Of a DNA stretch of 27,839 nt, positions 2,170 through 19,637 are shown in pieces (the stretch's first letter is position 1; each line of letters starts with the position of its first letter). Position numbers and translations under genes: made by a program. This stretch comes from a phage. The stretch is from the NCBI GenBank assembly GCA_023859445.1, contig GCA_023859445.1_4337.1. One strand, written 5' to 3'. Under the pieces are notes generated by a model. That model was not told where the DNA came from. It did no database searches and saw only the letters and a program-made list of their open reading frames with translations.

Positions 2170-2199
2170 TTGAAAGTTCTTGACACATGTTTGTATAAT
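2170..2199 (+). promoter_or_regulatory. Candidate sigma70 promoter (TTGAAA-18-TATAAT), divergent from 2104-2132
   Basis: TTGAAA 2170-2175, TATAAT 2194-2199, TG immediately upstream of the -10. Confidence 0.45.
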
Positions 2200-3125: not shown

Positions 3126-3277
3126 GAGAAGCATTTGAACGGTGGGCTGTGGTCGAGGGTCTGCCGGTTAACAAGGGTTCAAAGAAAGAGTACCTGAACG
3201 TTAAGACGCGTCTCGCGTGGCGGGCGTGGAAAGCTGGTGTGCAATCCTTGATTGAAAGAGGTGTGAGGTATGGGTGA
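3122..3277 (+). CDS. Hypothetical small protein (51 aa)
   Basis: ATG 3122 overlapping upstream stop (ATGA), SD GAGG upstream; ends TGA 3275-3277, overlapping next start; under the track length cutoff. Confidence 0.4.
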   Translation: MREAFERWAVVEGLPVNKGSKKEYLNVKTRLAWRAWKAGVQSLIERGVRYG

Positions 3278-6064: not shown

Positions 6065-6097
6065 ATCCCGGCCCTGACCCAGCCGGGATTTTTTTTA
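6065..6097 (+). terminator. Intrinsic terminator after the lysis cassette
   Basis: Stem TCCCGGC/GCCGGGA (6066-6072 / 6082-6088), 9-nt loop, followed by 8 T. Confidence 0.7.
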
Positions 6098-6118
6098 TCT
6101 ATTTTCTGCAATGACTAG

Positions 6119-6147
6119 TTGACTATTACCTACGACCCTATTATATT
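6119..6147 (+). promoter_or_regulatory. Candidate sigma70 promoter (TTGACT-17-TATATT)
   Basis: -35 6119-6124, -10 6142-6147; about 35 nt upstream of the 6181 gene. Confidence 0.45.
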
Positions 6148-6948: not shown

Positions 6949-7231
6949 AATCACAATCGCGTCACTTGAGCGTCGTATTCTGGTCCTTGAGTCAGAGAAA
7001 CAGACGTTAGGCGGGCAACTGTCAATTAACGGTGAGTTTCAACTGGAGGCGTTTAAGGAGTTACTGGCTATTAAGACGCAAGAACCGAACGTGTACGCGG
7101 GGTTGTTCGTCGGTGAAGACAGTTCTTCGCTGGCTTATTACAACACGGCAACCGCAGCTTCAAAGGATGGGGCTGATGTGATAATCCCGCTGTACGACAA
7201 TGTTGTCGGACCAGAAGATGAAAGCGCCTGA
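6941..7231 (+). CDS. Hypothetical protein (96 aa)
   Basis: ATG 6941 in frame with track ORF 6932-7231; overlaps the upstream gene end. Confidence 0.5.
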   Translation: MPKITIASLERRILVLESEKQTLGGQLSINGEFQLEAFKELLAIKTQEPNVYAGLFVGEDSSSLAYYNTATAASKDGADVIIPLYDNVVGPEDESA

Positions 7232-7400
7232 ACCGGTAGTTATTGATGGCGTCCTGTGGAAACCATACTCGGTTAACCACATCGACGCCGACGGGAAGAA
7301 GTTTAGCTTCTACATTTTTGCAATTAGCCGTGAGCACGCCGCTTGCGTGGTTTCCGATATACGAGAAACGGCGTGGCTCGGTGATGAGATAGTGGGGTGA
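7218..7400 (+). CDS. Hypothetical small protein (60 aa)
   Basis: In-frame ATG 7218 within track ORF 7200-7400. Confidence 0.4.
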   Translation: MKAPEPVVIDGVLWKPYSVNHIDADGKKFSFYIFAISREHAACVVSDIRETAWLGDEIVG

Positions 7401-7404
7401 GAGT

Positions 7405-7488
7405 ATGAGTCTCGAGGTGGTTATCGGTCTGGTTGGTCTTAGTTACTTCGTTGGGCTGTTGGTTGGATTTCTGTGGGGTAGATACTAA
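7405..7488 (+). CDS. Tiny hydrophobic peptide (27 aa, single predicted TM)
   Basis: ATG 7405, SD GGTGAGAG upstream; encodes MSLEVVIGLVGLSYFVGLLVGFLWGRY; TAA 7486-7488 overlaps next ATG. Confidence 0.3.
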   Translation: MSLEVVIGLVGLSYFVGLLVGFLWGRY

Positions 7489-7658
7489 TGTTCAGCGACA
7501 TCAACGCGGCAATCGAAGAAGCAATCTGGCGTCGCTACAACGGCGAGCAGCAGCGGCACTTCTGCCTGGTACAACGCGGTAACATGATTGCTGTGGTACA
7601 GGACCGTGATAATAAATATCCGAATGCGATGTGGACAACGAGGAATTTTTTAGGATGA
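7488..7658 (+). CDS. Hypothetical small protein (56 aa)
   Basis: ATG 7488 (TAATG overlap); codons counted to TGA 7656-7658. Confidence 0.4.
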   Translation: MFSDINAAIEEAIWRRYNGEQQRHFCLVQRGNMIAVVQDRDNKYPNAMWTTRNFLG

Positions 7659-7891
7659 TTACCAGCATTCCGAACCTGATTAAAGAATTTGGCACGATGG
7701 CCGAGACATGCCGACAAACCGGCATCAACGAAATGACGATTGCGAAGTACAGCAAAGACGTCGATTGCGAGCGCCACGTAATTTATAACAATCGTCTGAT
7801 GACGCACGTTAAGACAAGCCCGGTGTTATTCACGCGCCGGGGTATTACTAAAACAGAGCAACGTATTGCTAAAGAGGGGAGTGGGGAATGA
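7655..7891 (+). CDS. Small putative DNA-binding protein (78 aa)
   Basis: ATG 7655 in frame with track ORF 7631-7891, ATGA overlap; helix-turn-helix-like segment CRQTGINEMTIAKYSKD. Confidence 0.45.
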   Translation: MITSIPNLIKEFGTMAETCRQTGINEMTIAKYSKDVDCERHVIYNNRLMTHVKTSPVLFTRRGITKTEQRIAKEGSGE

Positions 7892-8046
7892 TTAGTATTC
7901 TGGAGTTCATCGACAACCAAGTTTGGTACGAGCCAGAGTTAAATAAGTATTCAGTTAATGGGAAAATATTTCGGCGCAAAGGCCAGGCAGAGCGTTACGC
8001 AGCTAAACTATACCGTCAGCTTGTCAAGGATGGTTTCTTCAAATGA
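7888..8046 (+). CDS. Hypothetical small protein (52 aa)
   Basis: ATG 7888 (ATGA overlap); codons counted to TGA 8044-8046. Confidence 0.4.
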   Translation: MISILEFIDNQVWYEPELNKYSVNGKIFRRKGQAERYAAKLYRQLVKDGFFK

Positions 8047-8144
8047 GACTACTAATCATCCCTAACGCCTGGGCCATTCCCGTAGCTAACGACCATTACG
8101 GCGGCGATGGTAAAAGAGCACCACGCCACGGCCCATACAACTGA
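8043..8144 (+). CDS. Hypothetical tiny protein (33 aa)
   Basis: ATG 8043 (ATGA overlap); ends TGA 8142-8144 just before a terminator hairpin. Confidence 0.3.
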   Translation: MRLLIIPNAWAIPVANDHYGGDGKRAPRHGPYN

Positions 8145-8148
8145 TACA

Positions 8149-8169
8149 AGCCCTCTACCGAGGGCTTTT
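8149..8169 (+). terminator. Intrinsic terminator-like hairpin ending the small-ORF block
   Basis: Stem AGCCCTC/GAGGGCT (8149-8155 / 8160-8166), loop TACC, then TTT. Confidence 0.5.
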
Positions 8170-8206
8170 CTGTACATCCTGCCCAATCACCCTATATAAT
8201 CCCTTT

Positions 8207-8248
8207 AGACGCGTAGGGCGCGTCTGGTGCGCTCTGATGGTCAGACGC
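8207..8248. promoter_or_regulatory. Cluster of three AGACGCG/CGCGTCT elements in alternating orientation upstream of terS
   Basis: AGACGCG 8207-8213, CGCGTCT 8219-8225 (perfect 7-bp IR, 5-nt loop), CAGACGC 8242-8248; possible -10 TATAAT at 8195-8200 just upstream. Confidence 0.4.
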
Positions 8249-8265
8249 ATATGCAAGGGGATTAT

Positions 8266-8814
8266 ATGAAGCTGAAACTCAAGCAGCCATCGCCAGAGGT
8301 GGTGCAAGCTGCGCATGAAGAAGCTGTTAGCGCAAACCGTCGCCGTAAACGACCGCGCGGTAAACAGAGCCTTTATCAATCGTCCCGTAATTCCGCCGCG
8401 TTGTGGGACCCGGACTATTGCGACGAATTAATTCGTTTCTTCGACCGCACGTCATGGGAGGCTATGCCGACAGGAGCGCACGGAGACTACAAAGCAGTCA
8501 TTGCGGATAAACCACCATCACTGGCTCGCTTCGCCTTACACATCGGTGTAACTATCCCGATTATTAAGCTGTGGCTGCGTGAGATTCCCGCATTTGCAGA
8601 AGCCTATGAAACAGCACAGGCGCTGGAAGAGGCATATTTCACTGAGACAGGGGCCGCGGGCATCTCTGCTACGTTCTCCGCAGCTAAACTGGGCCTCGGT
8701 AAAGAGAAACCAGTCGAATCCACCGAAGAAACGGCACCGACTGAGATTATTTTTAGTGTTGCAGAGCCTGTAGGTAAAATTGTAACAACGAATATGGGTG
8801 AGGTAGAGGAATGA
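8266..8814 (+). CDS. Terminase small subunit (putative), 182 aa
   Basis: ATG 8266 with SD AAGGGGA; immediately upstream of and overlapping the large subunit; basic N-terminal region; assignment by position. Confidence 0.6.
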   Translation: MKLKLKQPSPEVVQAAHEEAVSANRRRKRPRGKQSLYQSSRNSAALWDPDYCDELIRFFDRTSWEAMPTGAHGDYKAVIADKPPSLARFALHIGVTIPIIKLWLREIPAFAEAYETAQALEEAYFTETGAAGISATFSAAKLGLGKEKPVESTEETAPTEIIFSVAEPVGKIVTTNMGEVEE

Positions 8815-10061
8815 GTATTCAGCTATCCGCACCGCAGGCACTGTTCCTGAATTGCGATAACAAATACAAAGCCTATGTCGGCGGCTTCGGCAGCGGAAAG
8901 ACATTTGTTGGCTGCCTTGACCTGCTTACGTTTATGCTCAAGCATCCAGGTACGCGCCTGGGTTACTTCGGCCCGACATACCCGGCTATCCGTGACATCT
9001 TCTACCCGACATTTGAGGAAGCCGCTAACCTGCTCGGCCTCGATGTGCTGGTTAAATCTGGCGACAAAGAAGTCGTGGTTACTCGCGGTAAGACGGTGCT
9101 CGGTACAGTTATCTGCCGTTCTATGGATAACCCAGGCTCGATAGTCGGCTTCAAAATCGCTGCTGCGGTCGTGGATGAGCTTGATGTATTGAGCCGTGAG
9201 AAAGCTGAGCTGGCGTGGAACAAAATAGTCGCCCGTATGCGTCTGGTTATCCCCGGCGTAACTAACCACATCTCTGTCACCACGACACCGGAAGGGTTCA
9301 AGTTCGTCTACGCCAAGTTCAAAGAGAACCCGACGCCGAGTTACTCGATGGTGCAGGCTTCTACACACGAGAACGCGCGATTCCTGCCGCCTGACTACAT
9401 TAGCTCACTGACCGAGACTTACCCCGCGCAACTGATTAACGCGTACCTGAACGGTGAGTTCGTTAACCTGACATCCGGCAGCGTGTATTATGCGTATGAC
9501 CGTCGCAAGCACCGCAGCAAAGAGACAATTCAACCGGGCGATACACTGTACATCGGGCAGGACTTCAACGTTACGAAGAACGCCAGCGCCGTGTATGTGC
9601 AACGTAAAGACGGCTGGCACGCGGTGGCAGAACTGAAAGGTCTGTTTGATACGCCGGACACCGTGCGTGTAATTACTGAGAAGTGGAAGTCGCAGGGCCA
9701 CCGCATAGTCGTTTACCCGGACGCCAGCGGCAAGAACCGCAAGACCAACTCGGCGTCAATCTCAGATATTGCGTTACTCCAGCAGGCCGGTTTCGATGTT
9801 CGCGCTAAATCCGCCAACCCTCCGGTTAAAGACCGTGTTTTAGCCGTGAATACCGCACTGGAAAAAGGTAAGCTGTGGGTTAATGACCACTTATGCCCCG
9901 AGATAGCGAAGACGCTGGAGCAGCAGGCATACGATGATAACGGAGAGCCAGCTAAAGACGGCATCATTGACCATATGGCGGATGCTCTCGGCTATCCTGT
10001 AGTTTACGAGATGCCGGTGGTTAAACCAGTAATCAACATCCCGGTGACTTTCGCACTTTAA
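8811..10061 (+). CDS. Terminase large subunit (416 aa)
   Basis: ORF track; Walker A GGFGSGKT near the N-terminus; ATGA overlap with upstream gene; followed by portal. Confidence 0.85.
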   Translation: MSIQLSAPQALFLNCDNKYKAYVGGFGSGKTFVGCLDLLTFMLKHPGTRLGYFGPTYPAIRDIFYPTFEEAANLLGLDVLVKSGDKEVVVTRGKTVLGTVICRSMDNPGSIVGFKIAAAVVDELDVLSREKAELAWNKIVARMRLVIPGVTNHISVTTTPEGFKFVYAKFKENPTPSYSMVQASTHENARFLPPDYISSLTETYPAQLINAYLNGEFVNLTSGSVYYAYDRRKHRSKETIQPGDTLYIGQDFNVTKNASAVYVQRKDGWHAVAELKGLFDTPDTVRVITEKWKSQGHRIVVYPDASGKNRKTNSASISDIALLQQAGFDVRAKSANPPVKDRVLAVNTALEKGKLWVNDHLCPEIAKTLEQQAYDDNGEPAKDGIIDHMADALGYPVVYEMPVVKPVINIPVTFAL

Positions 10062-10072
10062 GAGGACAACAA

Positions 10073-11566
10073 ATGGTTTCCGCAAACATTAACGCAGGGC
10101 AAGGGCAGAACGTTAAAACCCGCCACCGCCAGTACGAAGAGTATTTCCCTAAGTGGCAGAAGGTGCGACATGCGCTTTCTGGCGACCTGACATCGTATCT
10201 ACGTGACGTCAGTAAGAACGAGCCGGACCCGGTTTACGGTCGCCAGCGTCAGGCTGAATACGAAGCGGGGGCAATTTGCTACAACTTCACCAAGCGAACG
10301 CTTTCAGGCATGGTCGGCAGCGTAATGCGCAAAGACCCCGAGATGATTATTCCGTCTCAGATGGAATACCTGACCACTAACTGTGACGGGTCGGGCGTTG
10401 GCCTGTGGCAGCACGCACAGGATACTCTGTATGAGATTGATGCTGTTGGTCGCGGTGGTTTGCTGGTTGACGCCCCCGCGGTAGAAGTAGCTACCATGGC
10501 AGAGCAAAACGAGGGTTTACTAAACCCAACAATCGCTTTCTACACCGCAGAGAATATCATCAACTGGCGTCTCCAGCGCGTCGGGTCTGTTAATCGTGTG
10601 GTTATGGTTGTATTGCGTGAGGAATACGAGTACACCGATGGCGCGGATGAGTTCAGCCCCAACTACGGCGAGCAATACCGAGTCCTTGATATTTTCGAAG
10701 GCCAGTATCGCCAGCGTCTGTACCGCTTTAACCAGAAAGGTGCACTGACGGAAGGTGGCTATATCGAAATATTCCCGAAACTCGGTAATATTCCGGTCGG
10801 GGTGATTCCGTTCACGTTCATCGGCGCGGGAAATAACGACTCAACCCCTGACGATGCACCTTTGCTGCCGTTGGCTGAACTTAATATCGGGCACTTCCGC
10901 AACAGCGCGGACAATGAGGAGTCCAGCTTCGTCGTAGGCCAGCCTACTCTGTTCATCGCCCCCGGTGAGAACATGAGCATGGGACAATGGAAAGAAGCCA
11001 ACCCTCACGGAGTGCGTATGGGGTCACGTTCTGGCCATAACATCGGTTACGGCGGCAATGCGTTTCTGGTCCAGGCCGGTGAGAACAACCTAGCCAAGCA
11101 GAACATGTTGGATAAAGAGAACCAGGCAATCCAGATTGGTGCACAGCTTATTACCCCGACGCAGCAAATCACCGCGGAATCGGCACGCCTGCAACGCGGC
11201 GCTGATACGTCCGTTATGGCAACAATCGCACGTAACGTAAGCATGGCGTATACCGATGCGCTGAAATGGGTTGCAGGCATGCTTGGGCTTAGTGACGGTA
11301 CTGAGATTGAGTTTAAGCTGAATATGGAGTTCTTCCTGCAACCGATGACCGCTCAGGACCGTGCGCAGTGGATGGCTGATATAAACGCAGGCCTGTTACC
11401 AGCGACCGCTTACTATGCTGCATTGCGCAAGGCGGGTGTAACTGACTGGACGGACGAGGACATTCAGAATGCTATCGAGGACGCACCTCTGCCGATTGGT
11501 GCGGTTACTCAGGTAGCGGGGGAGATTCCGCAGTCGGCGCAGCAAAAAGACCCCACCCAGCAGTAA
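10073..11566 (+). CDS. Portal protein (497 aa)
   Basis: ORF track; SD AAGAGGA; size and position between terminase and head morphogenesis gene. Confidence 0.75.
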   Translation: MVSANINAGQGQNVKTRHRQYEEYFPKWQKVRHALSGDLTSYLRDVSKNEPDPVYGRQRQAEYEAGAICYNFTKRTLSGMVGSVMRKDPEMIIPSQMEYLTTNCDGSGVGLWQHAQDTLYEIDAVGRGGLLVDAPAVEVATMAEQNEGLLNPTIAFYTAENIINWRLQRVGSVNRVVMVVLREEYEYTDGADEFSPNYGEQYRVLDIFEGQYRQRLYRFNQKGALTEGGYIEIFPKLGNIPVGVIPFTFIGAGNNDSTPDDAPLLPLAELNIGHFRNSADNEESSFVVGQPTLFIAPGENMSMGQWKEANPHGVRMGSRSGHNIGYGGNAFLVQAGENNLAKQNMLDKENQAIQIGAQLITPTQQITAESARLQRGADTSVMATIARNVSMAYTDALKWVAGMLGLSDGTEIEFKLNMEFFLQPMTAQDRAQWMADINAGLLPATAYYAALRKAGVTDWTDEDIQNAIEDAPLPIGAVTQVAGEIPQSAQQKDPTQQ

Positions 11567-11576
11567 GTTCACATAT

Positions 11577-11597
11577 AGCCCCGAAAGGGGCTTTCTT
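11577..11597 (+). terminator. Weak terminator-like hairpin after portal
   Basis: Stem AGCCCC/GGGGCT, GAAA loop, then TTCTTAT; overlaps start region of next gene so probably leaky. Confidence 0.35.
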
Positions 11598-13140: not shown

Positions 13141-13144
13141 TAAA

Positions 13145-13169
13145 AGGCCCCTTTCGGGGCCTTATTTTT
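13145..13169. terminator. Bidirectional intrinsic terminator
   Basis: Stem AGGCCCC/GGGGCCT, loop TTTC, flanked by AAAA upstream and TTATTTTT downstream; lies between convergent genes ending at 13140 (+) and 13172 (-). Confidence 0.75.
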
Positions 13170-13603: not shown

Positions 13604-13630
13604 GCCCCGCTTTAAGGCGGGGCTTTACTT
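13604..13630 (+). terminator. GC-rich hairpin with weak T-tract just upstream of Rz
   Basis: Stem GCCCCGC/GCGGGGC (13604-13610 / 13617-13623), loop TTTAAG, then TTTACTT. Confidence 0.35.
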
Positions 13631-15824: not shown

Positions 15825-15845
15825 TACAGTTAGTGGTAAAAACAA

Positions 15846-15865
15846 AGGGGCTACGGCCCCTTTTT
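15846..15865 (+). terminator. Intrinsic terminator after major capsid gene
   Basis: Stem AGGGGC/GCCCCT with TACG loop, followed by TTTTT (15861-15865). Confidence 0.7.
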
Positions 15866-19614: not shown

Positions 19615-19637
19615 AAGGCCCCGTTTGGGGCCTTTTT
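19615..19637. terminator. Bidirectional intrinsic terminator between convergent major tail gene and minus-strand operon
   Basis: Stem AAGGCCCC/GGGGCCTT, loop GTTT, flanked by AAAACT and TTTTT; stop of minus gene (19639) sits in the T-tract. Confidence 0.75.

Follow-up and report, generated by a model that had tools for sequence, protein, structure and literature searches.

A conserved pair of RNA hairpins between a predicted promoter and the small terminase gene of Guernseyvirinae and other phage lineages, and its candidate role as an mRNA leader

The window analysed here, a stretch of 27,839 nucleotides of phage DNA (contig GCA_023859445.1_4337.1), corresponds to about two thirds of a Kagunavirus-like genome (Guernseyvirinae). 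Its region 7900-8900 shares 98% identity with Escherichia phages MirsaeidiM_Esher4 and K1H and is matched by about 300 Kagunavirus and Jerseyvirus records. The repeat element under study sits in a 220-nt gap, with small rightward ORFs on its left and the structural genes on its right (Table 1). On the rightward strand of Bas73, a fully annotated relative, a divergent region is followed by small ORFs, holins, the endolysin, further small ORFs, terS, and the head and tail genes; the replication genes are leftward. No sigma factor, activator, or Q- or N-like antiterminator was annotated in the genome of this one relative. The gene upstream of the element varies by lineage, being NinH-like in some and an endolysin or a phosphoesterase in others, and none is constant.

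Table 1. Features of the terS locus in the window (nucleotide positions of the 27,839-nt stretch).
Feature	Position	Strand	Remarks
NinH-like ORF	7631-7891		Among the last of the small rightward ORFs before the gap
Intrinsic-terminator-like hairpin	8148..8169	+	AAGCCCTC-TACC-GAGGGCTT, then TTTT; closes the rightward unit that precedes it, made up of small ORFs beyond the lysis genes
-35-like hexamer	8171..8176	+	TGTACA; 18 nt upstream of the -10
Outer stem, 5' arm	8193..8205	+	-10 and C-rich discriminator; only in transcripts read through from upstream
-10 hexamer	8195..8200	+	TATAAT; TACAAT in Jerseyvirus
hp1	8206..8226	+	9-bp stem (U·G, AGACGCG/CGCGTCT, U·G), triloop AGG; holds copies 1 and 2 of the preliminary description
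Predicted transcription start, A	8207	+	7 nt past the end of the -10; opens the Watson-Crick part of the hp1 stem; placed by sigma-70 promoter geometry
hp2	8227..8250	+	5-bp lower stem GUGCG/CGCAU, bulged C8232, 5-bp upper stem UCUGA/UCAGA, triloop UGG
Shine-Dalgarno (SD) of terS	8255..8260	+	AAGGGG
Outer stem, 3' arm	8256..8268	+	SD, spacer and AUG of terS
terS (small terminase)	8266..8814	+	PHROG 3064; ATG 8266-8268 as start
terL	8811-10061		Terminase_6N/6C
Portal gene	10073-11566		
Terminator-like GC hairpins with T-rich tails	11577-11592, 13144-13163, 13604-13623, 15845-15862	+	Inside the late operon

As DNA, the element contains two perfect 7-bp inverted repeats, one formed by AGACGCG (8207-8213) and CGCGTCT (8219-8225) with arms 5 nt apart, the other by GCGTCTG (8220-8226) and CAGACGC (8242-8248), 15 nt apart. 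A direct repeat is formed by AGACGCGTA (8207) and AGACGCATA (8243). The 27.8 kb contain a single AGACGC-N5-9-GCGTCT palindrome, where 0.00 were expected; the bare 7-mer shows no enrichment in the window (8 seen, 4.7 expected). Matches in a metagenome scan with GGGCTTTTCTGTACA were mostly random, and only about seven further Kagunavirus copies were recovered. A similar palindrome, AGACGCGTCT at 3204-3213, falls within a coding region. The coordinates that the preliminary description gave for the repeats, the TATAAT and the terS ATG were all borne out, as was its upstream terminator hairpin. Overlooked in that description was a 13-nt inverted repeat that encloses the whole element (ATATAATCCCTTT, 8194-8206, with AAGGGGATTATAT, 8255-8267) and links the -10 to the SD and AUG.

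RNA spanning 8140-8290 was predicted to fold into four parts, namely the terminator hairpin, an outer helix, and the two hairpins hp1 and hp2. Pair probabilities were 0.8-1.0 for hp1, and 0.6-1.0 for hp1 and hp2 together in the window RNA. The first 45 nt of the predicted transcript consist of these two adjacent triloop hairpins, after which come 4-5 free nucleotides, the SD and the terS AUG. The free energy of the 94-nt leader is ordinary for its composition (z = -1.1), so support for the structure comes from covariation and not from energy. No covariance model of Rfam 15 matched over the element, either at the gathering threshold or with E up to 10. A switch between hp1 and a helix of copies 2 and 3 was considered and rejected: its probability in the window was 0.0, it showed no covariation among 34 homologues, and no sequence from outside Kagunavirus keeps the helix intact. 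The repeats had been described as a 7-bp element present three times in alternating orientation. The positions stand, and the idea of a single repeated element does not: copies 1 and 2 are the arms of hp1, copy 3 (8242-8248) is part of the 3' arm of hp2, and the pairing of copies 2 and 3 is unsupported. The three copies are therefore a by-product of two adjacent hairpins that share AGACGC by chance.

The hairpins follow a terminator and a promoter. The terminator hairpin, with a dG of -12.8, came from our own hairpin scan and was not reported by the standard terminator scan; it shows a compensatory change, from CCCTC/GAGGG in Kagunavirus to CCCGC/GCGGG in Jerseyvirus and the Cornell type. Ten of 12 positions matched in the promoter scan for the terS promoter, TGTACA-18-TATAAT. 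TGTACA is invariant in Kagunavirus and Jerseyvirus despite a diverging spacer sequence, and in the other lineages the hexamer is TTGCCT, TTGCTA or TTGCCA at a distance of 17 nt; Dhillonvirus instead shows an extended -10, TGTTATAAT. Across lineages the hexamers and their spacing are kept and the spacer sequences are unrelated; a -10 was found before hp1, at a fixed distance, in every lineage examined. Judged from its sequence, the promoter behaves as a genuine one of the host sigma-70 type. The gap from the -10 to hp1 is 5-9 nt overall, hp1 starts at the 6th to 8th nucleotide after the -10 in most lineages, and this spacing holds in lineages with differing discriminators. The hp1 stem of phage eiAU is longer and would be trimmed to begin at +1. 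No hairpin lies at +1 of the other promoter-like sites in the window. A literature search found no mapped transcription starts for Guernseyvirinae; promoter geometry predicts that hp1 forms the extreme 5' end of the terS transcript.

Homologues of the region were gathered from 50 IMG/VR contigs, from Jerseyvirus- and Cornellvirus-type phages in GenBank, and from Enterobacter phiEap-2, Hafnia TS33, Pantoea AH01, Serratia Smarc3, Edwardsiella eiAU and Dhillonvirus. A common order of terminator hairpin, -35, -10, 5-9 nt, hp1, hp2, SD and terS ATG was found in all collected lineages, that is, in Kagunavirus, Jerseyvirus, Cornellvirus-type, phiEap-2, Hafnia, Pantoea and Serratia phages, Eiauvirus and Dhillonvirus. 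Phage-database records with the element number about 386 for Kagunavirus and Jerseyvirus, dozens for the Cornell type, 156 for Dhillonvirus, five for Serratia and four for Edwardsiella phages. One copy is present in the window and one in the whole Bas73 genome. In a MAFFT alignment of 34 sequences (A1), 94.7% of cells were paired and both sides had changed in five pairs. MAFFT misaligns the 3' arm of hp2 in Cornell-type sequences, and a covariance model (CM) was hence used. The CM alignment A5, whose model was seeded with Kagunavirus and Jerseyvirus sequences only, had 97.5% of cells paired among 20 sequences, with both-side changes in four pairs. For the broad CM set of 25 sequences (A8) the corresponding value was 96.8%, with compensatory changes in 11 of the 19 pairs and a covariation score of 0.377 against 0.164 in shuffles. 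On all five measures used, each of 500 shuffles of A8 stayed below the observed value; when the register was slid, pairing in the same set was at most 56%. CM alignments lean to the structure of the model; the MAFFT-based and single-sequence results agree with them. RNAalifold independently predicted the same two hairpins, and the same fold was obtained individually in 17 of 18 distinct homologues.

The pattern of change differs between stems and loops. Six of the nine hp1 pairs show compensatory changes across lineages, and the hp1 stems are wholly replaced in Smarc3 (AAGGCCC/GGGCUUU), eiAU (GGGGCGGGCC/GGUCCGCCUC) and Dhillonvirus (AGAUGGC/GCCGUCU). At 8234/8244 in hp2, Kagunavirus has C-G, Jerseyvirus and the Cornell type share A-U, and Pantoea AH01 has G-C. 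Even where stems have been replaced, both triloops (AGG, UGG) and the GAUGGUC core are nearly invariant, as are the top two pairs of hp2. Structure rather than sequence is kept in the stems, and sequence is kept as well in the loops. The surrounding proteins diverge far more. Between the window and phage TO17 the 47-nt element is 79% identical, against 29% for TerS over 127 residues and 52% for TerL. TerS identity is only 23-29% across lineages, with a different putative recognition helix in each. The element co-occurs with one TerS family, and more distant TerS relatives in IMG/VR were found without it. The two hairpins are a conserved structure, present in single copy at a fixed place after a conserved promoter in many lineages of enterobacterial siphoviruses.

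Whether selection acts on RNA or DNA, and on which strand, can be read from the substitutions. G·U pairs occupy 41 of 357 paired cells in A5 (about 11%); examples are GUGUCU in Jerseyvirus, the Cornell-type arms GAGGUGCGC/GCGCGUCUC, and U8250, whose partner at 8227 is either G or A. As DNA, variants such as GTGTCT (Jerseyvirus) and GAGGTGCGC/GCGCGTCTC (Cornell type) break the symmetry and keep the RNA pairing. Such G·U changes are mismatches in a DNA cruciform, abolish dyad symmetry and give C·A on the opposite strand. In 16 of 18 sequences the plus strand folded more stably than the minus strand. Because the G·U pairs fit only the plus strand and the plus-strand fold is the more stable, these comparisons indicate that the selected object is the plus-strand RNA, the terS leader.

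In many records terS is started at an RTG equivalent to 8227, which is the first base of hp2. A TerS extended at its N terminus from GTG 8227 was rejected, as this frame is closed by TGA in TO17, SE1 and TS6, ends right after its start codon in Pantoea AH01 (ATG-TAG), and is shifted out of register with terS in Hafnia TS33. Between Kagunavirus and Jerseyvirus the changes 3' of 8266 are synonymous (MKLKLKQP is kept) and those 5' of 8266 are compensatory. Because the upstream frame is closed or shifted and the upstream changes are compensatory and not synonymous, the alignments place the start of terS at 8266 and mark the longer ORF from GTG 8227 as noncoding. This corrects a recurrent annotation error, in which terS is started at an upstream RTG inside hp2. 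In RNA starting at 8207 the SD was predicted to be mostly unpaired (0.66-0.71), and values of 0.4-0.9 were predicted for promoter-initiated RNA. With the SD predicted open in promoter-initiated RNA, the hairpins themselves would therefore not block translation.

The outer helix concerns a different transcript. Its pair probabilities were 0.78-1.0 in RNA 8100-8300, and in the window the SD was 0.05 unpaired in read-through RNA versus 0.66 in promoter-initiated RNA. The 5' arm is made up of the -10 and discriminator of the terS promoter itself, so transcripts from the predicted start at 8207 would lack it and only RNA initiated upstream would carry the inhibitory arm. On such read-through transcripts 8193-8205 would pair with the SD and AUG, and terS would be silenced; this is a secondary and weaker part of the proposed mechanism. 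Across Kagunavirus read-through RNA the SD was 0.00-0.05 unpaired, below nearly all random replacements of the upstream segment. In Jerseyvirus, TO17, Hafnia and Pantoea phages it was no more occluded than with shuffled upstream segments. The outer stem showed 12 double-change cells versus 2.9 in shuffles, with 85.7% of cells paired; the pair 8197/8264 is mismatched in most Kagunavirus sequences and 8203 varies without compensation. The pairing of a C-rich discriminator with a G-rich SD could be coincidental.

The explanation that we favour, and to which we give roughly an even chance, is that the repeats specify a structured leader at the 5' end of the terS mRNA, the message of the late packaging and head operon. 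The sigma-70-type promoter at 8171-8200, directly after the terminator, would start transcription from about 8207, and the nascent 5' end would fold into hp1 and then hp2, followed by the open SD and the terS AUG. By analogy with the ompA and papA leaders, in which pairing of the 5' end is the recognised determinant of protection, a base-paired 5' end would shield the long late mRNA from 5'-end-dependent decay by RppH and RNase E, and such end protection is probably one function of the leader. The near-invariant loops and the GAUGGUC core would in addition be candidates for recognition by a protein or by the transcription or translation machinery. Neither invariant loops nor a second hairpin would be needed for stabilisation alone, which thus falls short of accounting for the conservation; the conserved sequence of the loops and of the hp2 core suggests an additional binding partner. 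Three possibilities had been raised for the repeats from the outset, and the one that fits best is a 5' stem-loop on the packaging transcript: the hairpins lie at the predicted +1, 6-8 nt past a conserved -10, and are kept by compensatory and G·U changes. The other two, a TerS-recognised pac site and a late-promoter operator, fared poorly, as set out below.

The binding partner might itself be the point of the element. A protein-binding translational or regulatory operator, in which the AGG and UGG triloops and GAUGGUC are bound and translation or decay of terS or the late operon is tuned, is a possible but unlikely account; it overlaps the leader explanation and could be its missing half. The protein could be TerS or TerL in an autogenous role, a regulator of the late genes, or an RNA-binding protein of the host. 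The near-invariance of the loops and of the top two hp2 pairs where stems have fully changed speaks for such an operator, as do its location 5-20 nt upstream of the SD, its conservation far above that of the neighbouring genes, and the SPP1 terminase, which according to an entry in the reference list of PMC6316719 represses its own synthesis. Against it, no candidate partner emerged, none of the upstream genes accompanies the element in all lineages, and an operator does not require the fixed +1 position. The loops also lack GGA, which CsrA requires. Less probable again is a cis-acting antiterminator like HK022 put, whose nascent hairpins would, by analogy, stay on RNA polymerase and let it read through the terminators of the late operon. 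Two adjacent stem-loops do stand right after a promoter at the head of a long operon, terminator-like hairpins lie downstream (at 11577, 13144, 13604 and 15845), the annotation of Bas73 includes no Q- or N-like antiterminator, and the invariant loops could be contacts for RNA polymerase. The resemblance to put is, however, a putative one; the element is 45 nt long whereas put RNA is about 65-75 nt, it is single-copy in each genome, capsid genes are commonly followed by partial terminators where no antitermination operates, and a fixed +1 position would again be unnecessary. Taken more generally, a new class of cis-acting riboregulator in the leader of a late operon, either a put-like RNA on RNA polymerase or a site at which a dedicated factor of phage or host docks, is in our view rather doubtful.

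The DNA-level readings fare worse. It is very improbable that the element is a pac site, a segment recognised by TerS on the concatemer for the start of headful packaging that might double as a site of autoregulation of the terS promoter, like pac of SPP1. The TerL is of Terminase_6 type, the element is tied to one TerS family, and relatives are reported to package by headful: packaging of Jerseyvirus K47 was called 'P1-like' by PhageTerm (PMC10783031), and fBC-Eco01 has no fixed termini (PMC9825357), with no packaging position given in either paper; a positional precedent exists in SPP1, whose pac sequence overlaps the gene 1 promoters and RBS (PMC6316719). The substitutions are nevertheless RNA-like, with G·U tolerated at the cost of cruciform mismatches and broken dyads, and the hp1 stems have been swapped wholesale with pairing kept. 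The core is invariant even where TerS identity has fallen to 29% and below and the recognition helix differs in each lineage, and the more distant TerS relatives do without the element. The starts of many records and IMG/VR contigs, at equivalents of 8227, 8201 or 8256, were considered as physical ends and rejected, as they follow annotation conventions: the upstream ATG or GTG of the longest terS ORF, or a point 50 nt (fBC-Eco01, Kenya-K47) or 10 nt (Kenya-K3) before terS. Least likely of all, and hardly credible, is a DNA operator that spans +1 to +19 of the late promoter and would be bound by a dimeric repressor. A perfect 19-bp palindrome does cover the predicted start, and its total of 19 bp is kept in Jerseyvirus. 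Against this, the widespread G·U variants lose the DNA symmetry and keep the RNA pairing, the half-sites are entirely different in Serratia, Edwardsiella and Dhillonvirus phages, the conserved part is the loop, that is, the supposedly non-contacted centre, and no second copy exists in the window or in a full genome.

Guernseyvirinae and Dhillonvirus are small virulent siphoviruses, isolated as often as almost any other coliphages or Salmonella phages, and have found use in therapy and synthetic biology. To our knowledge the control of their late genes is essentially undescribed, and we know of no late activator, sigma factor or antiterminator in these phages. An element that is present in several hundred sequenced genomes and is more conserved than the terminase genes offers an easily mutated handle on expression of the late operon. 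It also carries a caution, in that inverted repeats upstream of terS should not be taken as pac sites. We regard the interest of the finding as moderate; it would be far higher if the element did act on RNA polymerase or dock a late-gene regulator. A docked factor would set the timing and amount of late gene expression, and a put-like RNA would carry RNA polymerase through the internal terminators of the terS-to-tail operon.

Among known systems, the favoured leader explanation is closest to the 5'-terminal stem-loops that stabilise the ompA and papA mRNAs of E. coli (Emory, Bouvet and Belasco 1992, as listed in PMC3997798). As in both, a stable hairpin would lie at the (predicted) 5' end or within 1-2 nt of it, and the order of the parts beyond it, a second hairpin and then a free SD, is that of the ompA leader. 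Unlike in ompA and papA, the loops and the hp2 core are conserved here beyond the needs of end protection; the 5' end is a predicted one, and the element has no sequence relationship to either leader. The outer stem recalls T4 genes e, soc, 49 and I-TevI, in which the RBS is sequestered in early read-through RNA and a late promoter lies inside the 5' arm (PMC3014915). As in gene e, the -10 and discriminator in the window are predicted to pair with the SD and AUG and so to provide the 5' strand of a helix. The window promoter is, in contrast, of sigma-70 type and not a T4 late promoter, two extra conserved hairpins lie inside the helix, and the pairing has flaws in most Kagunavirus sequences and does not exceed chance in several lineages. 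With the SPP1 pac site (pacL-pacC-pacR) the element shares its location in the promoter and leader of the small terminase gene of a headful phage; SPP1 pac is double-stranded DNA bound by TerS, whereas the constraint here is on RNA pairing and is independent of TerS divergence. HK022 putL and putR likewise place two adjacent nascent stem-loops between promoter and terminators, but the element is shorter and occurs once per genome. A lambda nut site also has a promoter-proximal leader hairpin, and the 5' arm of Kagunavirus hp2, CGCTCTGA, matches seven of the eight bases of lambda boxA, CGCTCTTA. The boxA-like string is, however, confined to Kagunavirus, the others having CGCTATGA, CGTTATGA and TGTTGCCGA, and the triloops differ from the pentaloops of boxB. 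A lambda-type nut site, with a conserved boxA and a boxB hairpin, was rejected on these grounds, and we know of no N-like gene in these phages. Likeness to CsrA sites, RfaH-ops or the MS2 operator was also rejected, the defining bases (GGA; GGCGGTAG) being absent or not conserved. The element is a previously undescribed example of a conventional object, a cis-acting structured mRNA leader, that is unusually conserved and widespread.

In many GenBank records, and in the compared sequence records L234, L236, L228 and L231, terS (the small terminase gene, ATG at 8266) is taken to start at an upstream GTG or ATG equivalent to 8227, a choice that would add about 13 residues (window 8227-8265). Several records are cut open at the equivalent of this position. 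Because the upstream start codon falls on the first base of hp2, the second of the two leader hairpins (8227-8250), and because several lineages have the reading frame from it either closed or out of register, terS annotations beginning there are probably wrong. The leader region of Salmonella phage vB_SenS_4FS1 (L230, PP537413) is mosaic: its promoter and discriminator are of Kagunavirus type (TGTACATCCCGCCCAATCCCCTTATATAATCCCTTT), its hairpins, Shine-Dalgarno sequence and terS are of Jerseyvirus type, and the recombination joint lies near +1.

The sequence of boxA in phage lambda is CGCTCTTA, to which the 5' arm of hp2 (8229-8237, CGCTCTGA) is a 7/8 match. This likeness is restricted to Kagunavirus and is therefore probably a coincidence. 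A perfect 10-bp palindrome, AGACGCGTCT, with a half-site identical to that of the first leader hairpin, hp1 (8206-8226), was observed within a coding region at 3204-3213. No enrichment of the hp1-type 7-mer was found in the window.

An automated terminator scan of 7000-9500 returned zero sites despite the obvious hairpin and T-run at 8148-8169, upstream of the terS promoter, likely because the maximal stem takes up two tail T residues. A second terminator-then-promoter junction (6065-6147) was found in the window, and a hairpin at +1 is absent there. The highest-scoring sigma-70-like match of all plus-strand sites in the window is at 2170-2199; a long perfect hairpin, GUUGACGAACCCUC...GAGGGAUUCGUCAAC, follows at about 2224-2258 (roughly +19 to +53), and the predicted fold of +1 to +60 has a dG of about -27. 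GC-rich hairpins with T-rich tails were also observed within or ending the terS-to-tail gene block, located 3' of the portal, Hoc-like and major capsid genes and at the block end. Those at 13144 and 19615 appear bidirectional. From their sequences, these hairpins may terminate, attenuate or stabilise.

Promoter-like, terminator-like and leader features in the window and in compared records
Feature	Record	Coordinates	Strand	Remark
Promoter-like, TTGAAA-18-TATAAT	window	2170-2199	+	sigma-70 match 11/12
Strong terminator-like hairpin + T8	window	6065-6089		3' of endolysin gene
Promoter-like, TTGACT-17-TATATT	window	6119-6147		between endolysin terminator-like hairpin and small ORFs
GC-rich hairpin, T-rich tail	window	11577-11592	+	
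GC-rich hairpin, T-rich tail	window	13144-13163	+	
GC-rich hairpin, T-rich tail	window	13604-13623	+	
GC-rich hairpin, T-rich tail	window	15845-15862	+	
GC-rich hairpin, T-rich tail	window	19615-19634	+	
Two-hairpin leader	L244	431-479		non-Guernseyvirinae
Two-hairpin leader	L245	419-467		non-Guernseyvirinae
Two-hairpin leader	L246	362-406		non-Guernseyvirinae
Two-hairpin leader	L285-L299			non-Guernseyvirinae

Two genes upstream of terS, an 86-aa NinH-like ORF (7631-7891) matches Pfam PF06322, under the gathering score, and PHROG 268. A NinH-like gene occupies the same place in phages TO17 and phiEap-2, and is not in this place in Dhillonvirus or eiAU. Outside Guernseyvirinae, the same leader, in which a TATAAT promoter is followed by two hairpins and then terS, was found in the Serratia phages Smarc3, Tsm2 and Otaku, in Edwardsiella phage eiAU, and in about 156 records of Dhillonvirus. 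The AGG and UGG triloops are retained in all three groups, with hp1 stems that are wholly different.
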